From: a virus
Virus genome (UHGV): UHGV-0098506
DNA: 24,443 nucleotides
Reading direction: 5' to 3' (one strand)
Shown here: piece by piece, positions 1,211 through 21,208 of the stretch
How positions within the stretch are numbered: the stretch's first letter is position 1
Layout of the letters: every line of letters begins with the position of its first letter
Position numbers and translations under genes: made by a program
The notes under the pieces: model-generated
What the model was told of the DNA's origin: nothing
What the model saw: the letters and a program-made list of their open reading frames with translations, nothing else
Database searches by the model: none

Positions 1211-1434
1211 GCTTTAACCTCCTGCACATCAACCGCATTCACCGCGCTATTGTGTCTCACAGACTTAAGCGCCGCAATGCAGTCTGACTTGCAAATGCGA
1301 TATGGACTTTTAGGTTTATCTGGATTTATCTTTGCGGCCTGAAGTCGTCCACTTCGTATCCACTGCGTGATAGTGCCTTTGTCTACCTTCAGATACGATG
1401 CTGCCTCTTCACGAGTGAAGATTTCTTCTTCCAC
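1087..1434 (-). CDS. xis: Excisionase (Xis, ~115 aa, P22-size class), GTG start with a GGAGA Shine-Dalgarno
   Basis: ORF immediately upstream of and overlapping int by ~124 nt in another frame. N-terminal EEAASYLKVDKGTITQWIRSGRL is a helix-turn-helix typical of excisionase/AlpA-family proteins. Position is the classic xis-int one. Confidence 0.7.
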   Translation of the reverse strand: MEEEIFTREEAASYLKVDKGTITQWIRSGRLQAAKINPDKPKSPYRICKSDCIAALKSVRHNSAVNAVDVQEVKACQSNYAVARGTVISSRQMDQELDALLKHRTKGKRKNFTIV

Positions 1435-1519
1435 TTGGAATCTCCATTTATTGAGTTGGTATTATTGCGGTAGGTCTGGATATCTTGAGAAATGAACAGG
1501 CCTCATCGAGTGTGAGGCG

Positions 1520-1864
1520 TTAGTCCTTGCGTAGCTCGCTAATTCTTCTGTAAGTCTCTGGTGCTTTGTTTTCGTGTATCTTCATTTCAGACTTCAACAG
1601 AGCAACGAGCGAATCCCATTCGTTGAGGATGCCTTTGAATGCCGGAACGCGCTTTGCAACCTTGTCGAATGAATCTCTGATTTCTGGAATCTGCTCAACA
1701 AGTGCAACGCATCGCCGGAAATCGGCTGCATCATGTGGAGCGCCGAAGTGATGACCATAGATATTCTTTTTCAGTCCACATGCGATTGAGGCAAGAGTTG
1801 CGCTACTGATGCCGACATCGCCAGTCGATTGCCATTTCAAAACCTTCATAGCCAAATCTGACAT
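1520..1864 (-). CDS. Hypothetical early-left accessory protein (114 aa)
   Basis: ATG at 1864 preceded by GGAGA. Sits downstream of an intrinsic terminator. No family recognised. Confidence 0.55.
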   Translation of the reverse strand: MSDLAMKVLKWQSTGDVGISSATLASIACGLKKNIYGHHFGAPHDAADFRRCVALVEQIPEIRDSFDKVAKRVPAFKGILNEWDSLVALLKSEMKIHENKAPETYRRISELRKD

Positions 1865-1902
1865 TTCTTGTCTCCATAAAACAAAACTCGCCGTAGCGAT
1901 TT

Positions 1903-1935
1903 CAGATAAAAGAAATCCTCGCGAGTGCGAGGATT
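1903..1935 (-). terminator. Rho-independent terminator (leftward transcript)
   Basis: On the minus strand: AATCCTCGC-ACTC-GCGAGGATT hairpin followed by TCTTTTATCT. Confidence 0.5.
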
Positions 1936-1964
1936 GTTATTCACCTTTGACGGCAAGTTGCAGG

Positions 1965-2600
1965 TTAGCCACGGTTAACCTCCCACGGCGGTTCTGGTAG
2001 AGGCATCCAGTGGGTTACACCGTCAATTGGTTCGTCGTCGTCGTACTCCAATGCGGCCATATAGAACCCGTCACGACGAGAATAAGAAATCCCTGACATT
2101 ACAATGCCATCCGAAACAACAATAATGTCACCCGTTTCTTCCGGCATTCGCTCACTACAGCTTATCCAACCATCCGGAGTTACCGGAGAGTTGCCGGGTT
2201 CTTTAATGTGCAAGAGAGGTTCACCATCTTTTGGCTCAGGCCACTGGCGCTCCATGTTGATCTTCAATTTATCTTCCATAGCAGCGGTAATTTCAGCATC
2301 GCTGATGCCAGCACGGAGCTGTGCATCCCACAACAGAAACTGCATATCAGCCCACTCGCTAAGATCGTCTGGTTCGGCTGCGGCTTCCAGTGCCTCTTTT
2401 GAGAGGTGTTTCAGTGGACCAATGGGGCCAACGCAGCCAAATGTGGAGTCAGACCATTTGGCATGCTCGTGGCGAATCTGTTCGCGTTCCAGTGATGCCA
2501 GTGCAATTCGTGCTAGTTCCATTTGTTCGCCACGAGTAAGCCCGTTTTCAAGCGGATTTTTAATGAACAATTCAATACGTTCTTTGGTAATAGTGGTCAT
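1965..2600 (-). CDS. Prophage accessory protein: N-terminal MazG-like dATP/dGTP pyrophosphohydrolase-type domain (DUF550-like) plus C-terminal DUF551-like domain
   Basis: 211-aa ORF with AAGGAG Shine-Dalgarno before ATG at 2600. C-terminus has DGWISCSERMPEE...WMPLPEPP, reminiscent of DUF551. N-terminus (KHLSKEALE...EWADMQFLLWD) resembles the DUF550 family. Domain assignment is from memory. Confidence 0.6.
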   Translation of the reverse strand: MTTITKERIELFIKNPLENGLTRGEQMELARIALASLEREQIRHEHAKWSDSTFGCVGPIGPLKHLSKEALEAAAEPDDLSEWADMQFLLWDAQLRAGISDAEITAAMEDKLKINMERQWPEPKDGEPLLHIKEPGNSPVTPDGWISCSERMPEETGDIIVVSDGIVMSGISYSRRDGFYMAALEYDDDEPIDGVTHWMPLPEPPWEVNRG

Positions 2601-2610
2601 GTGTTACTCC

Positions 2611-2874
2611 TTAACCCGCAGTGCTTTCAACTGATGAGGGGAACAAAATCTTTTCATCAAACCCTGCATTCATATCATGAACAGCAACACACCAATCCAC
2701 CGACGAACGATTATCAAGAGCCTCCATGATTTCATCCATGCGGCGTAGGTCATACAGGTAAATGCTTTTATCGCCAATGGTGTAAAAACCAATTTTTTTC
2801 GGTGATGGGCAGCGATCAAGAACGTCCTGTAATTCGTTCAACCATGCCCGTTCTTTTTTTGTTAAAGTTGCCAT
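2611..2874 (-). CDS. Hypothetical protein (87 aa, MATLTKKERAWLNELQDV...)
   Basis: ATG at 2874 preceded by AAGGAG (6-nt spacer). Start lies 1 nt after the stop of the upstream gene. The longer ORF-track start at 2907 lacks a Shine-Dalgarno. Confidence 0.55.
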   Translation of the reverse strand: MATLTKKERAWLNELQDVLDRCPSPKKIGFYTIGDKSIYLYDLRRMDEIMEALDNRSSVDWCVAVHDMNAGFDEKILFPSSVESTAG

Positions 2875-2875
2875 A

Positions 2876-3289
2876 TCACTCTCCTTTGATGCGAATGCCT
2901 GTTGCAATGCTGTTTATGATGCTGTCAGTGCATGGGGTAGAAAGCTGGGCATCTCCAGCAATTTTCATGACCTCAACATCTGCATATCGAATACCGAGGT
3001 GTATCAGACCGGCTATACCTGACTTAAGCCGAGCATTTTCCATAAACAGATCCTTTGCCCGCTGTTTTTCTGCTTCAAGCTCAACACGCAGTTTCCCAAC
3101 CGTTAGTGCAATATCCTCGTTCTCCTGGTCGCGGCGTTTGATGTATTGCTGGTTCCTTTCCCGTTCATCCAGTAGTGCCAGCACAACCTGAGGTGTGACC
3201 TTCATACGAAATGCCAGCAATTTTTGTGGTGTGGCTGCTATTTTTATTGCTTCTGCCGCATCACGCAGTGCCTGATAGTCAATTGTCAT
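2876..3289 (-). CDS. Ea22/Ead-like coiled-coil protein
   Basis: N-terminal MTIDYQALRDAAEA is the hallmark start of lambdoid Ea22/Ead-family proteins, followed by a coiled-coil-like segment (ELEAEKQRAKDL). ATG at 3289 forms an ATGA overlap with the upstream stop. Confidence 0.6.
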   Translation of the reverse strand: MTIDYQALRDAAEAIKIAATPQKLLAFRMKVTPQVVLALLDERERNQQYIKRRDQENEDIALTVGKLRVELEAEKQRAKDLFMENARLKSGIAGLIHLGIRYADVEVMKIAGDAQLSTPCTDSIINSIATGIRIKGE

Positions 3290-3930
3290 TCTCGCCATCC
3301 TTCACAGTTGTAATCACTACAGCCTTCAAAATCATATGGGCTGTACTGCCAGGAGATTTTTCCGCAATGCGGACAATTCCAACGCACCTTCCCGCTTCGC
3401 GACTTCTTTCTTCTGTTCTGCTCTTTCAACCAGTCAGGCATGACCAAACCTGCGCCCTGAACCATTGTTCTGCGGTTAAAGTTATTGATATTGAACGTCC
3501 TGCGCTTTGCTGCATCAGCAATGGAAAATGGCAACCAAACTATTCCTGGTTCGTTTTTGTTGGCGACGCTAAAGATGGTCGCTTTACTGAAGTCATCTGT
3601 TGGCAATCCACCGTGTTGAAGCCAGTAAACATCGTTGCCGTTCCAGCTACCTTTTTTGTAGGCCACATACGCAGTGCAATCTGACTCAATCAGGCTTTCT
3701 GTAGGGATGTACTGGCAATCAACGTGCCACACTGCCATTGCATCCACGCTATCAGCGCAAACAGGCTGATCGATATCTCGCCCACAATTCCAGGCTTTTT
3801 GGGCTTCTTCCAGCGTGTAAACATGAGCGCGATCGATATCAGAACTGTAACCATTGCCGTTATGGCAATGGAATGAAGCGTTATTGCCCACAGTTTCACG
3901 CGAGCACATCATGTAAAAACGGTTAGTCAC
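3286..3930 (-). CDS. Hypothetical Cys/His-rich protein (214 aa) with C-terminal CxxC...C..C zinc-ribbon-like motif
   Basis: GTG start at 3930 preceded by AAGGAGG at optimal spacing. Sequence ends NCPHCGKISWQYSPYDFEGCSDYNCEGW. No known family recognised. Confidence 0.55.
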   Translation of the reverse strand: MTNRFYMMCSRETVGNNASFHCHNGNGYSSDIDRAHVYTLEEAQKAWNCGRDIDQPVCADSVDAMAVWHVDCQYIPTESLIESDCTAYVAYKKGSWNGNDVYWLQHGGLPTDDFSKATIFSVANKNEPGIVWLPFSIADAAKRRTFNINNFNRRTMVQGAGLVMPDWLKEQNRRKKSRSGKVRWNCPHCGKISWQYSPYDFEGCSDYNCEGWRE

Positions 3931-3947
3931 TGGCTGCCTCCTTTGCG

Positions 3948-4112
3948 CTACATCGCATTCAGATATTTGTTGTCATTAACAGAGCTGAAACTATTTCTCT
4001 TAAGCAATTCCTCTCTCGATGGCATTGGCTTTACGCGTTGGCGAATAATCATTTCTGCCGGAAGAATGCCGGGATTGTATGCAAGTCCTCTCATGGTAAA
4101 TTCCTCAGTCAT
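3948..4112 (-). CDS. Small hypothetical protein (~54 aa, [26 protein letters not shown]...)
   Basis: ATG at 4112 overlaps the stop of the upstream ORF (ATGACTGA); a second in-frame ATG at 4094 is preceded by GAGGAA. The ORF-track start at 4244 gives a longer version that overlaps the upstream gene. Confidence 0.3.
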
Positions 4113-4398
4113 TACTGATAGCGCCATAGCGTGAGCGGTAATTACGCAGGCGCGGGTCAATTTCAGGGAAGTGGGTATATGTGGCTTTGCGGAATGGTCG
4201 GATTGATGTCTGGTAAATTCGCTCGCGTTCTTCTTTCTCTGCAAGCCATATACAGTGGCGAAATTCCTTTTCCTCTTTCGTTTCCTGCGGTAGCGACATT
4301 ATCCGATCGTAGTTTTTTCTGAATTTATCCAGCACCTCCGATACGGAATTGCCGGAACAGCGGCGCGGGTCGTCCTCACCATACAGAGGCGCTGGCAT
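4105..4398 (-). CDS. Hypothetical protein (97 aa)
   Basis: ATG at 4398 preceded by AAGGA. Begins 24 nt after the ssb stop, same strand. Confidence 0.5.
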
Positions 4399-4421
4399 AA
4401 TGGAATCCTTATGTTGCTACT

Positions 4422-4820
4422 TTAGAAGGGAATTGAATCGTCGTATTCAGGATGATTTTGATGATTGCTACTTTGCTGCTGTTGGCTGTTTCCTGAAGTT
4501 GCAAATCCAATCTTTGCATTCAGTAATTCAAGAGTGATTGATTGACCATTTTGCCCCTGATAAACATCAACCCTGATGTTTTCTCCGGTAATTTCCACAA
4601 TGCCACCTTCAACAAGAACACTACGGTAGTAATCCGCTTGCGCTCCCGGCTTGGCAAATACAACGGCGCTGTAGTTTGTCCATTCTTTCTTTTTTGTCAG
4701 GCGATCGTAATACTGAACTCCAGCACGGATGTTGAATCCGATATTTTCCCCGGCCTGAAACTCTCTTGCGGGCTTGTTTAGTCTTACAGTAATCGAGTGT
4801 GCCATTAAGCAGCCGCTCAT
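4422..4820 (-). CDS. ssb: Single-stranded DNA-binding protein (SSB family)
   Basis: C-terminal acidic tail ...PEYDDSIPF matches the SSB C-terminal D-D-D-I-P-F motif, preceded by a Gln/Gly-rich linker and an OB-fold-like N-terminus. ATG at 4820 overlaps the erf stop (ATGA coupling); alternative ATG at 4805. Confidence 0.8.
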   Translation of the reverse strand: MSGCLMAHSITVRLNKPAREFQAGENIGFNIRAGVQYYDRLTKKKEWTNYSAVVFAKPGAQADYYRSVLVEGGIVEITGENIRVDVYQGQNGQSITLELLNAKIGFATSGNSQQQQSSNHQNHPEYDDSIPF

Positions 4821-5410
4821 TCTAATTCGTCTCGTCTTATGTTGTAAACGTCCTGCGCTTTGTGCTGCTCCGGTGTGCCTTCGAGCATCTTCCACGCTTT
4901 GGCGAACGCCTGTTTAAGCTCTTCCACGGTGTTTTTCTGCATTGCTGCGTCAGTGAATGCTTTTAGAACCTGTTCAGGTGTAGGTGATGGTTTTGATTGC
5001 TTTGCTGCTGCGTTCTGCTGATGTTTATGCTCGTCGGTATCTGCATCTTTCGCATCATCAATGCCGAATAAACCATTGAGGCAATACTTGCGTGCATAAG
5101 AGCTTGTAGCTCCAGTAACTTGTGCAGAATCCATTCCTTTCTTGCTTTCTTCCTCTCGTGCAAGAGCGGTTGCCGTATGACTGTTTTCGCCATCGGTAAT
5201 AGTTGCCGTGGCTTTCACGTAATACCGATCACCAATCAACACAACTTCATCGCTGATTGATAAAAACAGGCCATTCAGTAACGGCTTAACGCCTTCAAGA
5301 ATGTCTTCGCAGCTTCTGTATTTATATTTGCCGAATGAGTTGTACTGATTCTTTGGCGCGTTCAGATTCTCCTGAATGGCTGCCAGTCTTGCGTAAAATT
5401 CTTTGCTCAT
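4817..5410 (-). CDS. erf: Erf-family single-strand annealing recombinase
   Basis: N-terminus from the internal ATG (MSKEFYARLAAIQENLNAPKNQYNSFGKYKYRSCEDILEGVKPLL...) closely matches P22 Erf as I recall it. The longer ORF-track start at 5440 is a TTG. Confidence 0.85.
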   Translation of the reverse strand: MSKEFYARLAAIQENLNAPKNQYNSFGKYKYRSCEDILEGVKPLLNGLFLSISDEVVLIGDRYYVKATATITDGENSHTATALAREEESKKGMDSAQVTGATSSYARKYCLNGLFGIDDAKDADTDEHKHQQNAAAKQSKPSPTPEQVLKAFTDAAMQKNTVEELKQAFAKAWKMLEGTPEQHKAQDVYNIRRDELE

Positions 5411-5511
5411 ATGTTTGTTCTCAGAATGGACATGGCCCAAGGAAATAACGCTGGTTTAATACTTCGACTCTGGACAAATTAAGGCATACCCGCATTCCTT
5501 CGCGGTCGCCA

Positions 5512-5670
5512 TTATGGCGATACCAGAGAGCTTTCTGCGTGTACATGCGTCTCTGTAACTTGCTCTCCTTCACTGTGGTTGCAAGTGACATGAATATCTC
5601 CTTCGTTACCGATTAATTCTTTCATCTGACGAATGAATTCTTCGTCTGACCAGTTATCCGTAAAACTCAT
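5512..5670 (-). CDS. Small protein (52 aa) translationally coupled to the cIII-like gene; occupies the kil-like position
   Basis: ATG at 5670 overlaps the stop of the upstream cIII-like ORF (ATGA). The kil-like label is by position only, not sequence. Confidence 0.4.
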   Translation of the reverse strand: MSFTDNWSDEEFIRQMKELIGNEGDIHVTCNHSEGEQVTETHVHAESSLVSP

Positions 5671-5837
5671 GGACGGCCTTGTTGTTTCAAAATATCCCAA
5701 AGCTTTTCGAGCAAACTTTTCACTCTTGGTTGTTTAAAGTCTGCTCCGGTTAAAATATTTTTTCGTGAATGCTGTACCGATAAAATCGGGTTGAAAGGGC
5801 GAACCGATGCCGCCCCTGCAATAGCGAACTGTTGCAT
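5667..5837 (-). CDS. cIII: cIII-like protein (56 aa; FtsH-inhibitor family), below the 60-aa cutoff of the ORF track
   Basis: Translation MQQFAIAGAASVRPFNPILSVQHSRKNILTGADFKQPRVKSLLEKLWDILKQQGRP. N-terminus MQ-FAIAG matches lambda cIII (MQYAIAG...) and the size fits. ATG at 5837 preceded by AAGGAG. Confidence 0.6.
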   Translation of the reverse strand: MQQFAIAGAASVRPFNPILSVQHSRKNILTGADFKQPRVKSLLEKLWDILKQQGRP

Positions 5838-5912
5838 AGGATGCTCCTTCTGTTTGATTGCATAACGAAAACGCCTCGAGTGAAGCGTTATTGGTATGCG
5901 GTAAAGCCGCGC

Positions 5913-6224
5913 TTAGGCGGCTGATGTTTCTTCTTTCAGGCTTTCGAGATATTTACGTGGGTCGTCGTAACATTGGCATTCGCTGTACCAATCCACCCAG
6001 CGATCAGTAAGCCCCATCTCTGATAAATCTTCATCGGTAAGGCTCTCATCCCACATCTCAAGGCCGTTAGCATTGCAGTAATCAGGCTTGATGTTGTTGT
6101 CATACTGAAAGGCGTCATAATCAGCCAGTGCGTCCATCAGGCGAACACCCTCTTCAACACTTGCCACTTCTACGATGAACGGCTTCATCGGTACTTGCGG
6201 GATATGCCAGACACGTAATTTCAT
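5913..6224 (-). CDS. Hypothetical acidic protein (103 aa, MKLRVWHIPQVPMKPF...)
   Basis: ATG at 6224 preceded by GGAGAA, immediately after an intrinsic terminator. The longer ORF-track start at 6278 would run into that terminator. Confidence 0.55.
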   Translation of the reverse strand: MKLRVWHIPQVPMKPFIVEVASVEEGVRLMDALADYDAFQYDNNIKPDYCNANGLEMWDESLTDEDLSEMGLTDRWVDWYSECQCYDDPRKYLESLKEETSAA

Positions 6225-6235
6225 ATTTTCTCCGT

Positions 6236-6263
6236 TAAAAAAATCGCCCTCACACTGGAGGGC
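6236..6263 (-). terminator. Rho-independent terminator (tL1-like) between the N-proximal unknown gene and downstream early-left genes
   Basis: Minus strand: GCCCTC-CAGTGT-GAGGGC hairpin followed by GA and T7. A second 9-bp stem hairpin (GTGTATTCA...TGAATACAC, 6325-6352) precedes it. Confidence 0.6.
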
Positions 6264-6367
6264 AAAGAAGATTTCCAATAATCAGAACAAGTCGGCTCCT
6301 GTTTAGTTACGAGCGACATTGCTCCGTGTATTCACTCGTTGGAATGAATACACAGTGCTTATTCGTA

Positions 6368-10582: not shown

Positions 10583-12008
10583 TTTTTATGCGCCGCCCCA
10601 TAGCATCGAGGCAGAGCAGGCGGTGATTGGTGGATTGCTTCTGGATGATGACAGCAGTGAGCGCGTCCGGAAAGTTCTGGCGATGCTGAAGCCTGATTCA
10701 TTTTACAGCCGACCACACAAAATCCTTTTCGAAGAAATAACCAGAATGCACCGGGAGCAAAAGCCAGTAGATGGGCTGACGCTTTTCGATGAACTGGAGC
10801 GTAAATCGTTAACTGTGTCTGTTGGCGGTTTTGCTTATATCGCTGAGATCGCAAAGAACACGCCAAGCGCAGCAAACATCGTTGCCTATGCAATGCAGGT
10901 TCGTGAAACCGCAATGGAACGCTACGCCATCAACCGCATGACTGAAGCGACGGAATTGCTCTATTCCCGCAACGGAATGACTGCAACGCAGAAGTACGAA
11001 GCTATTCAGTCGATTTTCACGCAACTGACAGACCATGCAAAAACCGGATCGCGTCGCGGCCTTCGTTCATTTGGTGAGGTCATGGAAGACTGGGTTAGCG
11101 ACCTTGAGAAGCGATTTGACCCATCAGGCGAACAACGGGGAATGAGCACAGGGATCCCATCGCTGGACAGGATGCTGTCACCGAAAGGTCTGGTGAAAGG
11201 CTCTCTATTTGTCATTGGCGCTCGCCCTAAGATGGGGAAAACGACGCTATACAGCCAGATGGCAATCAATTGCGCAGTGCATGAGAAAAAGCCCGCTTTG
11301 ATGTTCAGCCTTGAAATGCCAGGTGATCAGATACTGGAAAAACTGGTAGGGCAGAAGTCTGGTGTTAACCCGAATATTTTTTACCTTCCGGCGACAAATG
11401 ACGCTGATGACGGCTATCAGGGTGATTACGATGGTGACTTCAACAGGGCGATCGAAACAGCCAATCGCTTGAGTGAAATCGACCTGCTTTACATCGACGA
11501 CACGCCGGGATTATCTCTGGCTCAAATCGTCAGCGAAAGCCGTCGAATCAAGCGAGAAAAAGGATGTGTTGGCATGATTCTGGTCGATTACCTGACACTA
11601 ATGACCGCTGAGAAGGCCGATCGCAACGACCTTGCTTACGGCATGATCACCAAAGGACTGAAGAACCTTGCCAAAGAGCTTGATTGCGTTGTTGTGCTTC
11701 TGACGCAGCTTAACCGCGCACTGGAAAGCAGAACCAATAAACGCCCATTACCAAGTGACTCACGAGATACAGGGCAGATTGAACAGGATTGCGATTATTG
11801 GGTCGGGATCCATCGTGAAGGCGCTTTTGATGACAGTGTTCCACCTGGTGAAACTGAACTAATCCTTCGTCTCAATCGTCATGGCAATACCGGCACGGTG
11901 TATTGCATTCAGGCAAATGGCGCTATTTATGACACAGACCAACAGTCTGCTGAAATGCGCCGACGTGAACGCGAGGAACCGCAGTCCAAGAAGAAAGGAG
12001 GATTCTGA
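10572..12008 (+). CDS. DnaB-family replicative helicase (P22 gp12-type)
   Basis: N-terminal DnaB-N-like region (PHSIEAEQAVIGGLLLD), Walker A (GARPKMGKTT), Walker B (LVDYLTLM) and a C-terminal RecA-like fold. ATG at 10572 overlaps the upstream gene end. Confidence 0.9.
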   Translation: MTDNFYAPPHSIEAEQAVIGGLLLDDDSSERVRKVLAMLKPDSFYSRPHKILFEEITRMHREQKPVDGLTLFDELERKSLTVSVGGFAYIAEIAKNTPSAANIVAYAMQVRETAMERYAINRMTEATELLYSRNGMTATQKYEAIQSIFTQLTDHAKTGSRRGLRSFGEVMEDWVSDLEKRFDPSGEQRGMSTGIPSLDRMLSPKGLVKGSLFVIGARPKMGKTTLYSQMAINCAVHEKKPALMFSLEMPGDQILEKLVGQKSGVNPNIFYLPATNDADDGYQGDYDGDFNRAIETANRLSEIDLLYIDDTPGLSLAQIVSESRRIKREKGCVGMILVDYLTLMTAEKADRNDLAYGMITKGLKNLAKELDCVVVLLTQLNRALESRTNKRPLPSDSRDTGQIEQDCDYWVGIHREGAFDDSVPPGETELILRLNRHGNTGTVYCIQANGAIYDTDQQSAEMRRREREEPQSKKKGGF

Positions 12009-12035
12009 TGACCATCTACATCACTGAGCTAATAA

Positions 12036-12068
12036 CAGGCCTGCTGGTAATCGCAGGCCTTTTTATTT
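12036..12068 (+). terminator. Rho-independent terminator after the helicase gene (tR2-like), followed by a G9 homopolymer
   Basis: CAGGCCTGC-TGGTAATC-GCAGGCCT followed by TTTTATTT, then GGGGGGGGG at 12069-12077. Confidence 0.6.
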
Positions 12069-12083
12069 GGGGGGGGGTAAATC

Positions 12084-12290
12084 GTGGCTGAGTTAATTTT
12101 CTCTGCATTGAGGATTCTCGGTGCTATGTGGATGGTGGCGACGTTCATTGTTGTTGCCAGCAGTTTTGTCCGGTTGGTAGGCGAAGGTAAAGACCTGGTG
12201 GGTGTGCTTTTCGGTAGCATTCTCATGTGGGTGATTATCGGTGTTATGCCTGTCGCTGTAGCAAAAATGGCGTGGCGTTTTGTGAGTTGA
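12084..12290 (+). CDS. Small hydrophobic protein (68 aa, two predicted TM helices), GTG start
   Basis: GTG at 12084 lies 6 nt after the G9 tract, which could serve as a G-rich Shine-Dalgarno. Strongly hydrophobic (MWMVATFIVVASSFV...ILMWVIIGVMPVAVA). Confidence 0.35.
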   Translation: MAELIFSALRILGAMWMVATFIVVASSFVRLVGEGKDLVGVLFGSILMWVIIGVMPVAVAKMAWRFVS

Positions 12291-12307
12291 ACTGAGGGTA
12301 AGTATCG

Positions 12308-12628
12308 ATGGACGAATCAAGAAAGCAGTTTGAAGAAAGTTGGTTGCGACGTGGAGGCGAATCTTCAGACCTTATCCGTTACCCTGAAAATCACCATGAA
12401 ATTGGCAGTGGTGATATTGGTGGTCAATACGTGATGGACGATGTTCAAGGCCACTGGCAAACGTGGCAGGCATCGCGAGCAGCTATTGAAATAACCGCGC
12501 CAAAGTTTATCGACAGCAGAGAAGCATTAGCCAAAGGGTTTACTGTTGATTATTCCAATGGCTTCGGTGATGCAATGGATGCTTATGAGGAAAACATCCG
12601 CGCTGCTGGAATCAAAGTGAAGGAGTGA
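12308..12628 (+). CDS. Hypothetical nin-region protein (106 aa)
   Basis: GAGGGTAAG upstream of ATG. No family recognised. Confidence 0.5.
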   Translation: MDESRKQFEESWLRRGGESSDLIRYPENHHEIGSGDIGGQYVMDDVQGHWQTWQASRAAIEITAPKFIDSREALAKGFTVDYSNGFGDAMDAYEENIRAAGIKVKE

Positions 12629-12630
12629 GC

Positions 12631-12816
12631 ATGAGTCGACGAAGTAGCTTTTTGGGGTTTGTAATATTCCTGTCCTGCACTGGTTACATCGTAATCTGGT
12701 CAATTTCGAACATTGACCGTGGCGGGGAATATCTCATTGTAATGTTCTTTCCTTTGTTTCTTGGGTGGTACGCCGCAAGGTTGCTGGAAGAATGGGGTTA
12801 CAGGCATAAAAAATAA
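12631..12816 (+). CDS. Small membrane protein (61 aa)
   Basis: ATG at 12631 preceded by AAGGAG and abutting the upstream stop. Two hydrophobic segments. Confidence 0.45.
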   Translation: MSRRSSFLGFVIFLSCTGYIVIWSISNIDRGGEYLIVMFFPLFLGWYAARLLEEWGYRHKK

Positions 12817-12827
12817 AGGAGTGTTCA

Positions 12828-13238
12828 GTGAAGCAAACAATATTCCTCCGAACTAAGCAACAACAGCAAGCCGCAATCAACGCCATCCTCGCAACTCCTC
12901 TCGATAAAGACAAGCCAGTCACCATCCGCATTACTGACTACAAGCGAAATCTTGACCAGAACGCAAAATTTCACGCGATGGTCGCAGATATCGCCAGGCA
13001 AGTTCAGTGGCGCGATAAATGGTTAAAACCAGAACAATGGAAGGTTTTGTTGATCAGCGGTCATGCAGTGGCAACAAAGCAGGAAGCTGATGTTTTGCCC
13101 GGGCTTGAAGGCGAATACGTCAACATCCGCGAAAGCAGCGCGCAGATGAGTGTGAAGCGTATGGCAAGTCTGATTGAGTACACAACAGCGTGGGCTATTG
13201 GTCAGGGTGTCAGATTTACCGACAGGAGGTACGAATGA
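12828..13238 (+). CDS. ninB: NinB (Orf-family recombination mediator)
   Basis: GTG start with AAGGAG Shine-Dalgarno. Resembles lambda NinB ([22 protein letters not shown]... versus lambda RSLDQNRKLWACLGDVSRQVEW...) from memory. Confidence 0.8.
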
Positions 13239-13411
13239 GACGACAGCGACGAAGTTTCACCGACATCATCTGCGAAAACTGCAAATACCTTCCAACGAAA
13301 CGCTCCAGAAATAAACGCAAGCCAATCCCAAAAGAATCTGACGTAAAAACCTTCAATTACACAGCTCACCTGTGGGATATCCGGTGGCTAAGATATCGTG
13401 CGAGGAAATGA
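13235..13411 (+). CDS. ninE: NinE
   Basis: From the internal ATG (ATGA overlap with ninB stop, AGGAGG Shine-Dalgarno): [53 protein letters not shown], essentially lambda NinE as recalled. Confidence 0.8.
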
Positions 13412-13815
13412 CAATGCTTTTAATTCAACCTGGATTTGGCCTTAGCATCAAAAAAGGGCACATGTTCGGCGAGAAAGAGTCTCAACGAAAAATGGTGTCT
13501 ATCCGGTTGCCATTTATCAGTATTTATTGGCTAAACAGGGAGGCAACAAATTATTGGTATACCTGCGCCAGAGCAGCATTTAACGACCCTGACTGGTTTG
13601 TTAAAAACCACCACGCAGTTCGTCAGGCAAAGAGAAAGGCCAACATGACATACATGAAGGCGTATCAAAAAGCATGGAAAGAACACCGCGATCGATACCA
13701 ACAAGACATGGAAAAGCTTGAATCAGAAAACATGGAATTAAGACGAAAGCTCGGTGAAGCAAAACGAGACATTGATGCTTACAAGCGACTTTTTAATGGT
13801 GAAAGCCATGCTTAG
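13408..13815 (+). CDS. Hypothetical nin-region protein (135 aa) with C-terminal coiled coil
   Basis: ATG at 13408 in an ATGA overlap with the ninE stop, GAGGAA upstream. No family recognised. Confidence 0.55.
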
Positions 13816-13984
13816 CCCATCCCAAACCCTTCAATACCAGAAAGAAAGCGTCGAGCGGGCTTTAACGTGCGCTAACTGCGGTCAGAAGCTGCATGTGCTG
13901 GAAGTTCACGTGTGTGAGCACTGCTGTGCAGAACTGATGAGCGATCCGAATAGCTCAATGTACGAGGAAGAAGACGATGAATGA
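13808..13984 (+). CDS. ninF: NinF
   Basis: From the internal ATG: [58 protein letters not shown], nearly identical to lambda NinF as recalled. Confidence 0.8.
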   Translation: MLSPSQTLQYQKESVERALTCANCGQKLHVLEVHVCEHCCAELMSDPNSSMYEEEDDE

Positions 13985-14699
13985 GTTAATAAATGGCAAT
14001 GCCATCAAAATGACAAGCATTGAAATCGCTGAGTTGGTTGGTAAGCGTCATGACAATGTGAAACGTACCATCGAAACGCTGGCTAAAAATGGTGTTATCC
14101 GGCTTCCTCAAATTGAGGATCGTGGAAGAATCAATGGGTTAGGCTTAAATCAAAGTTTTTGTGTGTATGTATTCGAAGGCGAACAAGGAAAGCGAGACAG
14201 TATTGTCGTTGTTGCCCAGTTGTCGCCGTAATTCACCGCTCGCCTTGTTGACCGCTGGCGAGAGCTTGAAGAAGCTGCGGTTAATATCCCAAAAACGCTA
14301 CCAGAAGCGTTGCGCCTTGCTGCTGACCTTGCTGAGCAGAAAATGCAACTGGAAAACCAGCTCGCAATTGCCGCACCTAAAGTTGAGTTTGCCGATCGCG
14401 TTGGCGAGGCCAGCGGAATTTTGATTGGAAACTTTGCAAAGGTTGTTGGAATTGGTCCAAACAAACTGTTTGCGTGGATGCGCGATCACAAAATCCTTAT
14501 TGCTTCAGGTTCCCGGCGCAATGTGCCAATGCAGGAATATATGGATCGCGGCTATTTCACAGTGAAAGAAACAGCGTTCAACACAAATCACGGAATACAG
14601 ATATCGTTCACCACAAAAATCACCGGGCGTGGTCAACAGTGGCTGACCAGAAGGCTGCTCTATAGCGGAATGCTGAAAGTAACAGGGGAGGCTGCTTAA
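13977..14699 (+). pseudogene. Antirepressor/Roi-like gene (N-terminal Rha/ORF6N-like DNA-binding domain plus C-terminal KilA-C/ANT domain) interrupted by an in-frame TAA at 14229-14231
   Basis: ORF 13977-14231 and the region 14232-14699 are in the same frame, separated only by TAA. Read-through translation gives ...VVVAQLSP*FTARLVDRWRELEEAAVNIPKTLPEALRLAADLAEQKMQLENQL..., continuous with a KilA-C-type C-terminal domain. Confidence 0.55.
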
Positions 14700-14989
14700 T
14701 GGCTAAACTACGCAAAGAAGCGCGCGGCAGAGAATGCCAGGTACGTATTTACGGCGTATGCAATGGCAACCCTGAAACTACAGTTCTGGCACATTACCGG
14801 ATGGCTGGAATTTGCGGAACGGGAATGAAGCCTGACGACCTGATCGGCGCATGGGCTTGTAGCGCGTGTCACGATGAAATCGACCGACGTACCCATAACC
14901 TCGACAACAAAGACGCCAGACTTTACCACCTCGAAGGCGTGATCAGGACGCAGGCGATACTGCTGAAGGAGGGGAAGATTAAGTCATGA
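14699..14989 (+). CDS. YbcO-like DUF1364 protein (putative nuclease, Cys-rich)
   Basis: MAKLRKEARGRECQVRIYGVCNGNPETTVLAHYR...ACSACHDEIDRRTH closely resembles E. coli DLP12 YbcO as recalled. Sits immediately upstream of rusA. Confidence 0.75.
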   Translation: MAKLRKEARGRECQVRIYGVCNGNPETTVLAHYRMAGICGTGMKPDDLIGAWACSACHDEIDRRTHNLDNKDARLYHLEGVIRTQAILLKEGKIKS

Positions 14990-15348
14990 ACGAATATCAG
15001 TTTGTGCTTCCATACCCGCCGTCGGTGAACACCTACTGGCGAAGACGGGGAAGCCAATACTACATCAGCGATAAAGGCCAGAAATACCGAAAAGACGTTC
15101 AGCAAATCATCCGCCAACTCAAGTTAGACATTTTCACCAAATCACGACTCCGTATCAAAGTCATCGCAGACGTTCCAGACTCCCGCCGCCGCGACCTCGA
15201 CAACATCCTGAAAGGTTTACTCGACTCCCTTATCCACGCCGGATTTGCGGAAGACGACGAGCAATTCGATGACATTCGCGTAATTCGTGGCGTGAAAGTA
15301 CCAGGCGGAAGGCTTGGAATAAAAATCACCGAACTGGAGAACGCATGA
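14986..15348 (+). CDS. rusA: RusA Holliday-junction resolvase
   Basis: 120 aa with conserved RusA features (PPSVNTYW, acidic DxD and DNIxK-type catalytic region: RRRDLDNILKGLLDSL). ATGA overlap with upstream stop. Confidence 0.9.
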   Translation: MNEYQFVLPYPPSVNTYWRRRGSQYYISDKGQKYRKDVQQIIRQLKLDIFTKSRLRIKVIADVPDSRRRDLDNILKGLLDSLIHAGFAEDDEQFDDIRVIRGVKVPGGRLGIKITELENA

Positions 15349-15533
15349 ACGCCACAATTCAAACGATACCAGAGCTTCTTATCCAGACACGAGGCAATCA
15401 GACCGAAGTGGCGAGGATGCTTTCCTGCGCAAGAGGAACAGTGCTCAAGTACAACCGAGACAGCAAAGGCGAGCGTCACGTAATAGTTAACGGCGTCCTG
15501 ATGGTCAAACAGGGCAAAAGGGGAAGGCCATGA
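15345..15533 (+). CDS. ninH: NinH-like small DNA-binding protein
   Basis: IPELLIQTRGNQTEVARMLSCARGTVLKY parallels lambda NinH (IPDMLVEAYGNQTEVARRLKCSRGTVRKY). ATGA overlap with rusA stop. Confidence 0.75.
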   Translation: MNATIQTIPELLIQTRGNQTEVARMLSCARGTVLKYNRDSKGERHVIVNGVLMVKQGKRGRP

Positions 15534-16153
15534 GACTCGAAAGCGTAGCTAAATTTCATTCGCCAAAAAGCCCGATGATGAGTGACTCACCACGGGCCAC
15601 GGCTTCTGACTCTCTTTCCGGTACTGATGTGATGGCTGCTATGGGGATGGCGCAATCACAAGCCGGATTCGGAATGGCTGCATTCTGCGGTAAGCATGAA
15701 CTCAGCCAGAACGACAAACAAAAGGCTATCAACTATCTGATGCAATTTGCACACAAGGTATCGGGGAAATACCGTGGTGTGGCAAAGCTCGAAGGAAATA
15801 CTAAGGCAAAGGTACTGCAAGTGCTCGCAACATTCGCTTATGCGGATTATTGCCGTAGTGCCGCGACGCCGGGCGCAAGATGCAGAGATTGCCACGGTAC
15901 AGGCCGTGCGGTTGATATAGCCAAAACGGAGCAGTGGGGGAGAGTTGTTGAGAAAGAGTGCGGAAGATGCAAAGGTGTCGGCTATTCAAGAATGCCAGCA
16001 AGCGCCGCATATCGCGCTGTAACGATGCTAATCCCAAACCTTACTCAACCCACCTGGTCACGCACTGTTAAGCCGCTGTATGACGCTCTGGTGGTGCAAT
16101 GCCACAAGGAAGAGTCAATCGCAGACAATATTTTGAATGCGGTCACACGTTAG
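15530..16153 (+). CDS. Q: Late-gene antiterminator Q (lambda-type)
   Basis: 207 aa. N-terminus MRLESVAKFHSPKSPMMSDSPRATASD and the Cys-rich zinc-binding region match lambda Q as I recall it. Followed by a lambda-like pR' promoter. Confidence 0.9.
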   Translation: MRLESVAKFHSPKSPMMSDSPRATASDSLSGTDVMAAMGMAQSQAGFGMAAFCGKHELSQNDKQKAINYLMQFAHKVSGKYRGVAKLEGNTKAKVLQVLATFAYADYCRSAATPGARCRDCHGTGRAVDIAKTEQWGRVVEKECGRCKGVGYSRMPASAAYRAVTMLIPNLTQPTWSRTVKPLYDALVVQCHKEESIADNILNAVTR

Positions 16154-16195
16154 CAGCATGATTGCCACGGATGGCAACATATTAACGGCATAATA

Positions 16196-16231
16196 TTGAC
16201 TTTTTGAATAAAGTTGGGTAAATTTGACTCA
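16196..16231 (+). promoter_or_regulatory. Late promoter pR' with qut region (-35 TTGACT, 17-bp spacer, -10 TAAATT)
   Basis: TTGACT at 16196-16201 and TAAATT at 16219-16224. Sequence resembles the lambda pR'/qut element immediately downstream of Q. Confidence 0.65.
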
Positions 16232-16258
16232 ACGATGGATAAATGCACTCGTTAAATA

Positions 16259-16290
16259 AAGCCCTGAGTTAATAGCTCGGGGCTTTTTTG
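16259..16290 (+). terminator. tR'-type intrinsic terminator ~60 nt downstream of the pR' start
   Basis: AGCCCTGAG-TTAATAG-CTCGGGGCT followed by TTTTTT. Confidence 0.6.
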
Positions 16291-16587
16291 CGTTTTAAGC
16301 ACGGCCTTTCTGAAAGCACATCAAACCAAATACCAGACAGACAAAAATAATCACCTTATCCGCTGTGGCTACGGTGCGGTGTGCTTTGCATAAAAGAAAA
16401 CCAGCTCAATGGCTGGCTTCGTGAAAGCGGGTGGCAAGAGGTTGCGCTAACAACCTCCTGCCGTTTTGCCCGTGCATATCGGTCACGAACAAATCTGATT
16501 ACTAAACACAGTAGCCTGGATTTGTTCTATCAGTAATCGACCTTATTCCTAATTAAATAGAGCAAATCCCCTTATTGGGGGTAAGAC

Positions 16588-16911
16588 ATGAAGATGCCAG
16601 AAAAACATGACCTGTTAGCCGCCATTCTCGCGGCAAAGGAACAAGGCATCGGGGCAATCCTTGCGTTTGCAATGGCGTACCTTCGCGGCAGATATAATGG
16701 CGGTGCGTTTACAAAAACAGTAATCGACGCAACGATGTGCGCCATTATCGCCTGGTTCATTCGTGACCTTCTCGACTTCGCCGGACTAAGTAGCAATCTC
16801 GCTTATATAACGAGCGTGTTCATCGGCTACATCGGTACTGACTCGATTGGTTCGCTTATCAAACGCTTCGCTGCTAAAAAAGCCGGAGTAGAAGATGGTG
16901 GAAATCAATAA
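16588..16911 (+). CDS. S: Holin S (class I, lambda-type) with dual-start motif
   Basis: [39 protein letters not shown]... is the lambda S protein as recalled. Met1-Lys2-Met3 dual start. Upstream CCCC-TTATT-GGGG stem-loop (16567-16581) overlaps the Shine-Dalgarno (sdi-like). Confidence 0.9.
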
Positions 16912-17371
16912 TCAACGTAAGGCGTTCCTCGATATGCTGGCGTGGTCAGAGGGAACTGATAACGGACGGCAGAAAACCAGAAATCATGGTTATGACGTCA
17001 TTGTAGGAGGAGAGCTATTCACTGATTACTCCGATCACCCTCGCAAACTTGTCACGCTAAACCCCAAACTCAAATCAACAGCAGCCGGACGTTACCAGCT
17101 TCTTTCCCGTTGGTGGGATGCCTATCGTAAGCAGCTTGGCCTGAAAGACTTCTCTCCGAAAAGCCAGGACGCTGTTGCGCTGCAGCAGATTAAGGAGCGT
17201 GGCGCTTTACCGATGATTGATCGCGGTGATATCCGTCAGGCTATCGACCGTTGCAGCAATATCTGGGCTTCACTGCCGGGTGCTGGTTATGGTCAGTTCG
17301 AGCATAAGGCAGACAGCCTGATTGCAAAATTCAAAGAAGCAGGCGGAACGGTCAGAGAGATTGAGGTATGA
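16895..17371 (+). CDS. R: Endolysin R (lambda-type lytic transglycosylase)
   Basis: [51 protein letters not shown]... matches lambda R as recalled. Overlaps the end of S. Confidence 0.9.
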
Positions 17372-17835
17372 GTAGAGTAACCGCGATTATCTCCGCTCTG
17401 GTTATCTGCATCATCGTTTGCCTGTCATGGGCTGTTAATCATTACCGTGATAACGCCATGACCTACAAAGAGCAGCGCGATAACAAGGCCAGTGAACTGG
17501 AGAGGGCGAACGCCACCATTACTGACATGCAGCAGCTCCAGCGTGATGCTGATGCACTCGATGCTAAATACGCGAAGGAGTTAGCTGATGCGAAAGCTGA
17601 AAATGATGCTCTTCGGCGCAAGCTTGATAATGGTGGCAGGGTGCTCGTCAAAGGAAAATGCCCTGTGCCATCCTCAGACGAAACCTCCAGCGCCTCCGGC
17701 ATGGGCAATGATGCCACCGTCGAACTCTCTCCAGTTGCTGGACGAAACGTTCTCGGTGTCCGGGACGGAATTATCCGCGACCAAACAGCACTGAGAACGC
17801 TTCAGGAATACATCAGGACGCAATGCCTTCGATGA
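17368..17835 (+). CDS. Rz: Spanin inner-membrane subunit Rz
   Basis: N-terminal TM helix ([18 protein letters not shown]) then coiled-coil periplasmic domain. ATGA overlap with R stop. Lambda Rz-like. Confidence 0.85.
17588..17794 (+). CDS. Rz1: Spanin outer-membrane lipoprotein Rz1, embedded in the +1 frame of Rz
   Basis: Signal peptide with lipobox (LIMVAGC) followed by a Pro-rich mature region ([13 protein letters not shown]). AAGGAG 7 nt upstream. Entirely inside Rz. Confidence 0.8.
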
Positions 17836-18008
17836 TAGCGATAATTCTACTCATCATCCTTCACATCTGGCTCTGTAGACAGGGTGGTGATCACTTCTGG
17901 AGTAAATCCAGATTAAACATCTCATTGCTGATGCTTGATATTGAGCATCTGGCGCGCGGTAAGGGGCTGCGTTGAGATAAGAGCCAGTCATCACAAACAC
18001 CAGGATTT

Positions 18009-18034
18009 AGCCTCGCATTCGCGGGGCTTTTTTA
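18009..18034 (+). terminator. Intrinsic terminator after the lysis cassette
   Basis: AGCCTCGC-ATTC-GCGGGGCT (one wobble) followed by TTTTT. A second hairpin CGCGC-TTCACA-CGCGCG follows at 18047-18065. Confidence 0.5.
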
Positions 18035-18180
18035 TATCTGCAACAAACGCGCTTCACACGCGCGACTTTTGAACACAGAACCTTTCAGGATGACCCTTGA
18101 GGATGCCGGTTTGGTTATCGGTGCCTTTCTGTGGGCCGGAATCCTGTGTGACAAGGTTCATCACTAAAAGGTAATCACTG

Positions 18181-18711
18181 ATGAAGTACCCAACAGTTAT
18201 TGTCAATGGTGTGTCCGTTCGTGTTGATGAGGATGGACGCTACAACTTAAACGATCTCCATGCAGCAGCAGTTGCAAATGGAGAGGCTACAGAGCAACAG
18301 CGCCCAAGCCAGTTTTTGCGTAGCGCGCAGATAAAACGCTTCATAAAAGCACTGGAGGCCAAAGTGCAAAAAAGCACTTTGGAACAAATTCAACCACTTA
18401 AAATAATCAAAGGTGGTGCAGAACCAGGTGTGTGGGGTGTTGAACTTCTGGCAATCAGATATGCAGCATGGATTAAGCCGGAATTTGAAATCGAAGTTTA
18501 TGAAGTTTTCAAAACGGTCGTCCGTCTCGGCGTTGGCGCAATGTCCCGTCTGAATAGAATCGATCACATCATCAATACTGAAACCAAAGCGATAAGCCAG
18601 TGCGCAAGCCAAATGGCTAAGTGGGGCGTTGGTGGGCGAAAAAGATTGCTTCATGTTGCACGTGAGAGAGCGGCAAATGAAGTGCAAATGTATTTGCCCG
18701 GAATGGTGTGA
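18181..18711 (+). CDS. KilA-N domain protein
   Basis: N-terminal region (VNGVSVRVDEDGRYNLNDLHAAA...PSQFLRSAQIKRFIKALE) is a typical KilA-N/APSES-type DNA-binding domain. Sits between lysis and packaging genes. Confidence 0.7.
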   Translation: MKYPTVIVNGVSVRVDEDGRYNLNDLHAAAVANGEATEQQRPSQFLRSAQIKRFIKALEAKVQKSTLEQIQPLKIIKGGAEPGVWGVELLAIRYAAWIKPEFEIEVYEVFKTVVRLGVGAMSRLNRIDHIINTETKAISQCASQMAKWGVGGRKRLLHVARERAANEVQMYLPGMV

Positions 18712-19239: not shown

Positions 19240-19734
19240 ATGAATATGGCAGCACCAAAGGGCAACCGATTCTGGGAGGCCCGCAGTAGTCATGGGCGAA
19301 ACCCTAAATTCGAATCGCCTGAGGCGCTGTGGGCTGCTTGTTGTGAATACTTCGAGTGGGCTGATGATAACCCGCTATGGGAGGGTAAGGTATTTTCATA
19401 TCAGGGAGAAATAATTAAGGCTAATGTCCCTAAGATGCGAGCCATGACTATTTCAGGATTGTGTACCTTCCTTGATATCACCAGGCAAACATGGGGAACC
19501 TTCCGGTCAATGGAAGGTTTTTCTGACGTCACATCACGAGCGGAAGACATCATCTACGACCAGAAATTCTCTGGCGCAGCCGCTGACCTTCTCAACGCTA
19601 ACATCATCGCCCGTGATTTGGGCCTCAAAGAGCAGTCGCAAGTTGAAGACGTGACACCTGATAAGGGAGATCGCGATAAGCGACGCTCTCGTATCAAGGA
19701 GCTATTCAACCGTGGAACTGGACGCGATTCTTGA
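19240..19734 (+). CDS. Terminase small subunit (P22 gp3 family)
   Basis: [38 protein letters not shown]...[56 protein letters not shown] matches P22 gp3 closely as recalled. True start probably the ATG at 19246. Confidence 0.85.
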
Positions 19735-21208
19735 TAACCTGAGCGACGAAGAGCAAATCGAGTTGCTCGAGCTACTCGAAGAAGAAGAGAACTACCGGAA
19801 CACACACCTGCTATATGAATTTACGCCATACAGCAAACAGCGTGAGTTCATCGATGCCGGGCATGACTATCCAGAGCGATGTTTTATGGCTGGTAACCAG
19901 CTTGGTAAGTCATTTACTGGTGCTGCTGAAGTCGCATTTCACCTTACCGGGCGTTATCCGGGCACAAAAGGCTATCCTGCTGATGGTAAATATGGCGGGG
20001 AGTGGAAAGGTAAGCGTTTCTATGAGCCTGTTGTCTTCTGGATTGGTGGCGAGACAAACGAGACTGTAACCAAAACGACTCAACGCATCCTGTGCGGTCG
20101 TATCGAAGAGAATGATGAGCCTGGCTACGGTTCCATACCGAAAGAGGACATCATTAGCTGGAAGAAGTCTCCTTTCTTTCCGAACCTTGTTGATCATCTT
20201 CTGGTTAAGCATCACACGGCTGATGGCGTTGAAGATGGAATTTCAATCTGCTACTTCAAACCATACTCGCAAGGCCGCGCTCGCTGGCAGGGTGACACAA
20301 TCCACGGCGTGTGGTTTGACGAAGAGCCACCATACAGCATTTATGGCGAAGGTCTTACCCGTACCAACAAATACGGTCAATTCTCAATTCTGACGTTTAC
20401 CCCGCTAATGGGGATGTCTGACGTTGTTACCAAGTTCCTGAAGAACCCCAGCAAGTCGCAGAAAGTGGTCAACATGACCATCTATGACGCTGAGCACTAC
20501 ACCGACGAGCAGAAAGAGCAAATCATCGCATCCTATCCTGAGCATGAGAGAGAGGCGCGTGCTCGCGGTATTCCTACGATGGGTAGTGGTCGAATCTTCC
20601 AGATACCGGAAGAGACGATTAAGTGTCAGCCGTTCGAGTGTCCTGATCACTTCTACGTCATCAATGCAATGGACTTCGGATGGGATCACCCACAGGCACA
20701 CATCCAGCTTTGGTGGGATAAAGACGAGGACGTGATTTATCTTTCTCGCGTCTGGAAGGCCAAACAGAAGAAGGCGACAGAGGCATGGAGTGCTGTTAAA
20801 GCATGGAGCAAAAACACCCCTACGGCTTGGCCTCATGACGGGCATCAGCACGAAAAGGGAGGCGGCGCTCAGCTCAAGGAACAATACGCCGACGCTGGGT
20901 TCGACATGTTGCCAGATCATGCAACATGGCCTGATGGAGGTAATGCGGTCGAACCCGGGATAGCAGAGATACGCGACATGATGCTCGACGGTCGTTTCAA
21001 GGTATTTAACACCTGCGAGCCATTCTTTGAAGAGTTTCGCCTGTATCACCGAGATGAGAACGGGAAGATCGTCAAGCTAAATGACGACATCCTTTCTGCT
21101 GTTCGCTATGGCTACATGATGAGGCGTTTTGCAATACAGATGCGAGACATCAAAGATCCTAAAGAGATTGATTACTCAAGCTACAACATACCTTGCGGAG
21201 TTGGATGA
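19712..21208 (+). CDS. Terminase large subunit (P22 gp2 family)
   Basis: 498 aa. N-terminus [37 protein letters not shown] as in P22 gp2. ATPase Walker A-like [15 protein letters not shown] start overlapping the end of the small subunit gene. Confidence 0.9.

Follow-up and report, generated by a model that had tools for sequence, protein, structure and literature searches.

Does the stretch of DNA that runs from the nin genes through the late antiterminator Q to the lysis genes of the viral genome UHGV-0098506 derive from one block of phage lambda, or is it put together from several sources? The window, the whole 24,443-nt (24.4-kb) stretch of this genome that was analysed and whose numbering is used throughout, carries in order an integrase gene (50–1210, minus strand), early-left genes, an immunity region, O/P-type replication genes, nin, Q, lysis, terminase, portal and scaffold genes, and belongs to a temperate phage or prophage of E. 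coli in the P22-like group (Lederbergvirus). We followed up positions 12828–18034 (5,207 bp), which the original prediction had described as a lambda-type nin, Q and lysis block set into a P22-type backbone with a recombination joint in the late leader. Our comparisons suggest instead that this is an ordinary lambdoid stretch of nin, Q, late-leader and lysis sequence, made up of at least ten cassettes with different nearest relatives, a reading to which we give a probability of roughly 0.9. The mosaic is real, but it represents known modular exchange among lambdoid phages, biology that has already been described.

A megablast search against 50,697 phage records returned 764 that match the window, the best being E. 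coli P22-like and HK-series lambdoid phages (phiv205-1, mEpX2, HK620, Kapi1, CUS-3, HK97 and HK022 at the top, 95–97% identical in patches). Taken as a whole, 12828–18034 is 94–97% identical to the early-right and lysis region of E. coli phages of the HK97, HK022, HK620, Gally and Kapi1 type, and among its cassettes some are kin to lambda, some to P22 and most to HK97/HK620-type phages. By blastn, lambda (NC_001416) covers 2,238 of the 5,207 bp (43%) in four separate pieces, which lie in ninE (13242–13408, 95.2% nucleotide (nt) identity), in ninF (13842–13979, 96.4%), in Q with the late promoter pR' (15520–16253, 96.5%) and in the S leader, S, R and the 5' part of Rz (16417–17615, 95.6%). P22 (NC_002371) matches the ninE and ninF pieces at 94.8% and gives one contiguous high-scoring segment pair (HSP) from Q to the end of the holin gene (15529–16897, 88.7%). 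Once aligned with lambda and P22 the region proved not to be uniformly diverged, and its breakpoints could be mapped as the original prediction had expected: mismatch to lambda is 2.8% in Q, 10.6% in pR', 1.0% in the S leader and S, 4.5% in R and 13.7% in 5' Rz, with no similarity outside the matching segments. Segment boundaries were taken from comparisons with lambda, P22, HK620, Gally, EP91A, HK97, Kapi1 and CUS-3. What stands of the lambda block in a P22 backbone is therefore the mosaic itself; the block does not, as lambda accounts for only 43% of the region, most of nin is of neither lambda nor P22 type, and the piece between the two late-leader breakpoints is P22-like.

The late leader between Q and S

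The distance from the Q stop to the S start is 434 bp in the window and 676 bp in lambda, the difference in length from which a recombination joint had been suspected. A three-way alignment of lambda, P22 and the window, read together with a 50-nt sliding identity plot and a count of diagnostic sites, bears this out and places two sharp breakpoints relative to lambda in the leader, at 16253/16254 (+23 of the transcript) and at 16416/16417. They bracket a 163-bp cassette (16254–16416, plus strand) with a P22-type terminator tR', which stands for a lambda segment of 405 bp (44610–45014) that holds lambda's own tR' and orf-64. The two segments share no BLAST HSP and reach 46% identity in a forced alignment; the first ~60 nt of the cassette are clearly homologous to P22 tR', and its right two-thirds are only ~60% like P22 and unlike lambda. 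The tR'-type terminator itself is where it had been noted (16259–16290), as a terminator scan finds a strong stem-loop at 16258–16286 followed by a U-tract to ~16296 (–23.3 kcal/mol, z = –4.1). This is the same fold as P22's annotated t late, and its position, ~+28 to +65, is P22-like rather than the distal one of lambda.

Upstream of the cassette lies Q (15530–16153, plus strand; PF03589, E = 1.3e-57), a late antiterminator of the lambda and P22 gene 23 family, where similarity to lambda sets in at 15520 and similarity to P22 at 15529, no more than 10 nt from the start codon. That Q is almost identical to its lambda counterpart was correctly foreseen (206 of 207 amino acids (aa), 99.5%, with the single change Q135L; 97.3% nt), and the same gene differs from P22 gp23 by five amino acids (97.6% aa, 95.7% nt). 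Lambda and P22 are themselves 95.0% identical in nucleotides over the Q gene, and in the window's copy diagnostic sites of the two types are intermingled along the gene. The closeness of Q, NinE and NinF to P22 reflects the fact that lambda and P22 share these genes, and since these alleles are also carried by P22 and many further lambdoid phages, near-identity to lambda in Q, NinE and NinF says nothing about lambda ancestry.

The late promoter had also been called lambda-like, and it falls within the lambda HSP that extends to 16253, but pR' and the qut site are of P22 type. A promoter scan places pR' at 16196–16253 (plus strand, including the first 23 nt of the transcript), with a –35 element TTGACT (16196–16201), 17 nt, and a –10 element TAAATT (16219–16224), and the probable transcription start is 16231, where the annotated 5' end of P22's late RNA (37887) aligns. 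The 21-bp Q-binding element between –35 and –10 (16202–16222) shows no mismatch to P22 and two to lambda. The last lambda-type diagnostic site in Q and pR' is at 16187; from 16203 to 16269 all 15 sites that distinguish the two phages carry the P22 base, P22-type bases continue to ~16320, and lambda-type bases return from 16417–16426. The interval 16188–16253, which is 89% identical to lambda and adjoins the non-homologous segment, looks like the flanking trace of a homologous recombination event. In the early transcribed region the hexamer AACGAT (16231–16236), which we take to be the –10-like pause-inducing hexamer of the lambda literature, is invariant among the window, lambda and P22. With a Q-family protein, a sigma-70 promoter that includes a Q-binding element, the early hexamer and an intrinsic terminator downstream, the locus appears to be a Q module.

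If these parts behave as they do in their relatives, host RNA polymerase would start at pR' (~16231) and, without Q, would stop at tR' to give an RNA of ~60 nt as in P22; the lambda equivalent of this terminated leader RNA is the 194-nt 6S RNA. Q would bind at 16202–16222 and modify the paused polymerase, which would then read through into S, R, Rz/Rz1 and the head genes. Late control and lysis are built from three modules. The first (15520–16416) joins a Q of the lambda/P22 gene 23 family to a pR'/qut and a promoter-proximal tR' that are both of P22 type. The second (16417–17615) is a lambda-type lysis module in which the 171-bp S leader is followed by S, R and the 83 initial codons of Rz. 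The third (17616–18063) is of HK620/Kapi1 type, with the C-terminal half of Rz, the embedded Rz1 and a 50-aa open reading frame (ORF). The joints would have arisen by recombination between co-resident lambdoid phages or prophages at short conserved linkers and been inherited from ancestors.

The right breakpoint of the leader also carries a terminator-like hairpin with a T-run on the minus strand (16397–16420, across the 16416/16417 junction; –11.9 kcal/mol, z = –3.7). P22 and HK620 have a hairpin at the equivalent place, and it might stop leftward, antisense transcription toward Q. A 51-aa ORF (16381–16536) crosses the same junction and is listed as a hypothetical protein in a few phage records; we did not treat it as a gene. 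It is conceivable, though we think it unlikely, that the 163-bp P22/HK-type and the 405-bp lambda-type cassettes are functionally non-equivalent, either in basal read-through into the lysis genes or in an antisense block into Q. If they were, selection on late-gene timing, and not neutral exchange, would be what keeps the recurrent junctions at +23 and at 16417.

The lysis genes and the junction at 16417

From 16417 through S the window returns to 98.8–99.1% identity with lambda. The S leader (16417–16587, plus strand, 171 bp), the conserved linker at the left end of the lysis module, is 98.8% identical to lambda and contains two hairpins, one at 16433–16462 and one at 16566–16582 directly upstream of the S ribosome-binding site. 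The former has a conserved 10-bp stem followed by GTTTTG (GUUUUG in the RNA) at 16463–16468, and its position 16437:16458 pairs G with C in lambda and U with A in CUS-3, where the window has an A.C mismatch. This hairpin could act as another, weak terminator in the late leader or be a structure of the mRNA; tandem terminators have reportedly been described in the lambda late leader.

The high identity to lambda that had been expected of S and R is present in both. S (16588–16911, plus strand; PF05106) is a class I holin with the lambda-type dual start ATG AAG ATG at 16588, and is 99.1% identical to lambda S in amino acids and in nucleotides and 89.6% aa (89.5% nt) identical to P22 gp13. R (16895–17371, plus strand), a lambda-type endolysin (transglycosylase) assigned to phrog_90 endolysin and with no Pfam match at E ≤ 0.01, is 98.7% aa and 95.4% nt identical to lambda R; it has no match in P22, whose gene 19 lysozyme is unrelated.

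Rz and Rz1, which had likewise been taken for nearly lambda-identical, are not. The i-spanin gene Rz (17368–17835, plus strand; PF03245) is a chimera in which the lambda HSP decays and ends at 17615 (codon 83): codons 1–83 are lambda-like (89% nt), and from 17616 the gene carries the HK620/Kapi1 allele. Its product is 61% identical in amino acids to that of lambda, 49% to P22, 90% to HK620 and 92% to Kapi1. The o-spanin lipoprotein gene Rz1 (17588–17794, plus strand; PF06085) is embedded in Rz, as in lambda, but the entire Rz1 belongs, together with the 3' part of Rz, to the HK620/Kapi1 allele, and it is only 39% aa identical to lambda and 28% to P22. Residues 27–87 of lambda Rz form the coiled coil CC1, and contact with Rz1 has been attributed to the C-terminal end of CC2 (PMC5295617). 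As the breakpoint at about codon 83 coincides with the end of CC1, CC2 and the C-terminal domain of Rz stay with Rz1, and the exchange would thus have kept the interacting parts together, preserving the partnership between the Rz C-terminus and Rz1. Directly 3' of Rz lies a 50-aa ORF (17823–17975, plus strand; phrog_11822) whose Kapi1 homologue is annotated with a signal peptide, and the terminator scan finds a strong terminator-like hairpin after it (18009–18028, plus strand). Both are common to Kapi1, HK620 and EP91A, with similarity extending to 18035 in Kapi1 and to 18063 in HK620. This hairpin sits within what should be the late operon.

The edge at 16417 is found in many other phages. 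Similarity to lambda, Kapi1 and CUS-3 resumes in every case exactly at 16417, and in a sample spread over the BLAST matches Sf6, BTP1, Huey, JEP4, Oslo and others with different Q modules also begin to match exactly there. The same slot accepts other inserts, namely a lambda-type tR' with two tRNA genes in Kapi1 and a P22-type tR' with ~665 bp more in HK620. A tRNA search of the window found none, so the window lacks Kapi1's late-leader tRNA insert, and an Rfam scan of the whole window returned no family at the gathering score. The CUS-3 record (CP000711) has the annotation "bsq3; boundary sequence" on the sequence upstream of S and "bsq4" on that after the Q gene; 16417–16587 of the window falls inside bsq3, within an HSP of 97.0% identity (16417–17483). 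On these observations the lysis module begins at 16417, and its leader of 171 bp serves as a conserved linker.

The whole 434-bp leader is common. Among the phage records listed, ~40 have it at 94.7–98.6% identity, and 81 in all cover at least 80% of it; carriers include siphoviruses (HK97, HK022, HK140 and the mEp phages), podoviruses (Gally, Sf101 and Salmonella phage Emek), and also HK544 and HK106. Complete E. coli genomes have it too: 265 of the 5,426 contain at least 80% of the leader, with identities that reach 99.8%. Because the identical arrangement is so widespread in phages and prophages, the late-leader joint is inherited and did not originate in this genome; set against the leader as it commonly occurs, it is lambda that is unusual. 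A 40-mer across pR' and tR' matches only one E. coli draft contig and JAEZIN010000021.1. The latter, a contig whose metagenome-assembled genome has the label Bacillota, contains this enterobacterial nin-Q-lysis block at 637–6286 (92.6–98.5%, and 97.1% over a 3.3-kb piece with Q and the lysis genes), most likely through a wrong genome assignment or contamination.

The nin region, the backbone and rival explanations

ninB (12828–13238, plus strand; PF05772, E = 4.6e-53), a recombination mediator gene, is of the HK620/Kapi1 allele (95–96% nt to both), and its product is 38% aa identical to lambda and 38% to P22. ninE (13235–13411, plus strand; PF05322) is common to lambda and P22 at ~95% nt each (P22 94.8% over 13224–13416), and ninF (13808–13984, plus strand; PF05810) is of P22 type over its full length, as P22 similarity begins at 13808 and that of lambda only at 13842. 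The two products had been judged nearly identical to those of lambda, and at the nucleotide level both genes are indeed ~95% identical to lambda and P22 alike, but the proteins are closer to P22 (NinE 96% against 92% in lambda; NinF 96.5% against 88%). Between them lies a 133-aa ORF (13414–13815, plus strand; phrog_1511, E = 1.5e-86) with a predicted coiled-coil C-terminus, a cassette that Gally has in the same slot and the EP91A prophage has with an internal stop; the slot is empty in lambda, HK97 and HK620 and carries ninX in P22 and Kapi1.

From 13980 to 15519 (roi, ybcO, rusA and ninH) blastn gives no nucleotide match in lambda or P22. roi (13977–14699, plus strand), an HK97/HK620-type gene with a Rha N-terminus and a KilAC/ANT domain, is interrupted by an in-frame TAA at 14229–14231 that separates the two parts; the same codon is GAA or GAG (Glu) in HK620, Gally, EP91A, HK97 and Kapi1, all of which are intact there. 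An exact 34-mer with this TAA had no match in the genome and viral contig collections, and the stop could be either a sequencing error or a true nonsense mutation that arose in a prophage. Next to roi comes a gene for a putative nuclease of the YbcO family (14699–14989, plus strand; PF07102, E = 8.7e-45; phrog_131), which is homologous to and syntenic with hkbD of HK620 and gp66 of HK97, then the HK97/HK620-type Holliday-junction resolvase gene rusA (14986–15348, plus strand; PF05866) and ninH (15345–15533, plus strand; PF06322), of the HK97/HK620 allele and 56% and 60% aa identical to NinH of lambda and of P22.

Among the backbone proteins that the original prediction had called P22-like, identity to P22 falls from 92% aa in TerL and 76% in Erf to 54% in Int and only 34% in portal. 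The terminase is of P22 type in its small and its large subunit (PF16677 GP3_package; TerL also 88% nt to P22 gp2), and it is directly followed by a portal and a scaffold gene of the P22 family. The portal matches P22 gp1 over its full length (E = 8e-99), but portal and scaffold are 95.6% nt identical to CUS-3 and appear to be CUS-3-type, not closely P22-type. We also observed a sharp joint at the 3' end of the large terminase gene (19712–21208), where P22-type sequence ends at 21165 and CUS-3-type sequence runs from 21170 to the end of the window; CUS-3 itself carries a different terminase. Genes for the coat, the tail machine and the tailspike would lie past that end (24443). The variable slot between the lysis genes and the terminase is occupied by a KilA-N domain gene (18181–18711; PF04383, phrog_129), which has no nucleotide match to the same-slot genes of P22, HK620, Gally and Kapi1.

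Could the region nevertheless have entered a P22-type genome fairly recently as one contiguous lambda-derived block of nin, Q and lysis genes, with one joint in the late leader? The protein identities of Q, S and R (98.7–99.5%) and two long lambda HSPs at 95.6–96.5% nt (15520–16253 and 16417–17615) speak for such an event. It is nonetheless very unlikely, because lambda covers less than half of the region and does so in pieces, ninE, ninF and Q are as close or closer to P22, pR'/qut and tR' are P22-type, and ninB, roi, ybcO, rusA, ninH, 3' Rz and Rz1 are not lambda-type. Moreover, the supposed recipient is not closely P22 (its portal is divergent and its head genes are CUS-3-type), and many phages and prophages already have this late leader. 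An internal deletion of ~242 bp from a lambda-type leader, with no foreign replacement, would account for the net length (676 against 434 bp) and for flanks that are lambda-like on both sides. Against it, the 163 bp of the cassette have no real similarity to the 405 bp of lambda and its first ~60 nt are homologous to P22 tR' and fold into the same hairpin; we rejected the deletion on the strength of this P22 homology in the three-way alignment and consider it barely credible. Equally hard to credit is that the joints are assembly chimeras or sequencing artefacts. The unexpected in-frame stop in roi would fit, as would the lack of any record that covers at least 80% of the whole window, but independent complete genomes span every junction in 12828–18034: the EP91A prophage aligns in one 6-kb HSP (12000–17997, 96.2%), Gally aligns over 12596–17597, and the leader, at 80% or more of its length, recurs in the 265 complete E. 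coli genomes.

We therefore return to a stretch built from at least ten lambdoid cassettes, a description that nothing in the data contradicts, although several points count against parts of it. The particular combination of modules in this window has no documented precedent, since none of the phage records (best 51%) and none of the complete E. coli genomes (best 68%) covers at least 80% of it; the window appears to be a new combination of common lambdoid modules. The finer limits within the lambda-like part (S/R and R/5' Rz) were picked post hoc, after inspection of the data; divergence from lambda differs between the S and R blocks at p = 5.5e-4 and between R and 5' Rz at p = 1e-4. The start site, the size of the terminated RNA and the action of Q were assigned by homology to the lambda and P22 parts alone. 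Finally, the mechanism of exchange is one we infer, and the data do not separate exchange at conserved linkers from illegitimate recombination followed by selection.

Comparison with known lambdoid phages

The base-precise module boundaries (15520, 16253/16254, 16416/16417 and 17615/17616) agree with what is known of lambdoid modular evolution, and beyond a correct annotation of the locus they add little. According to published work on P22-like phages, P22 and epsilon34 have Q proteins ~99% identical to that of lambda, the nin region is "typically mosaic" and lysis cassettes occur in varied combinations (PMC2629481); even P22-like phages that are otherwise alike carry reshuffled holin and lysin types (PMC2629481, PMC8022706). 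Lambdoid phages abound in mosaics that are flanked by traces of homologous recombination, and Rad52-like phage recombinases, Erf included, recombine diverged sequences efficiently (PMC3945230). Erf is encoded in the window itself.

The closest relatives, HK620, Gally, Kapi1, CUS-3 and the EP91A prophage, share the order ninB, ninE, (cassette), ninF, roi, hkbD/ybcO, rusA, ninH, Q, S, R, Rz/Rz1 with the window and are 95–97% nt identical to most of 12828–18034, yet no single one has all of its modules, and in each of them roi is uninterrupted. Gally and EP91A resemble the window in the 133-aa cassette and in a late leader of 433–434 bp, but Gally, like HK97, has a P22-like 3' half of Rz. HK620 and Kapi1 share the window's Rz/Rz1 allele and differ from it after Q, HK620 by its ~665 extra bp after tR' and Kapi1 by a lambda-type tR' and two tRNA genes. 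CUS-3 has the same portal and scaffold, combined with a different Q and a different terminase.

Lambda (43875–46213) is like the window in Q (one amino acid apart), the S leader and S (99% nt), R (95.4%), the dual start of S and the N-terminal 83 codons of Rz. It is unlike the window in its 405-bp leader segment with the distal tR' and orf-64, in two changes in the Q-binding element, in ninC, ninD, ninG and ninI, and in 3' Rz and Rz1. P22 (37185–38556: gene 23, P late, t late and gene 13) is the reverse in the leader, as it shares the Q-binding element, the promoter-proximal tR' hairpin and the 434-bp spacing between Q and holin; it differs in the S leader (only 70%), the holin gene (89.5% nt), an unrelated endolysin, Rz (49% aa) and the portal (34% aa).

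A further parallel comes from what are called boundary sequences. In lambdoid phages such conserved stretches have been suggested to serve for homologous exchange, an idea traced to Susskind & Botstein and Clark et al. 2001 (J Mol Biol 311:657), as they are cited in PMC3029335; our link to the latter study runs through these citations and the CUS-3 feature table. The bsq4 of CUS-3, which follows its different Q gene, has no counterpart in the window. Like bsq3, 16417–16587 of the window behaves as a conserved non-coding linker where modules are joined to different neighbours.

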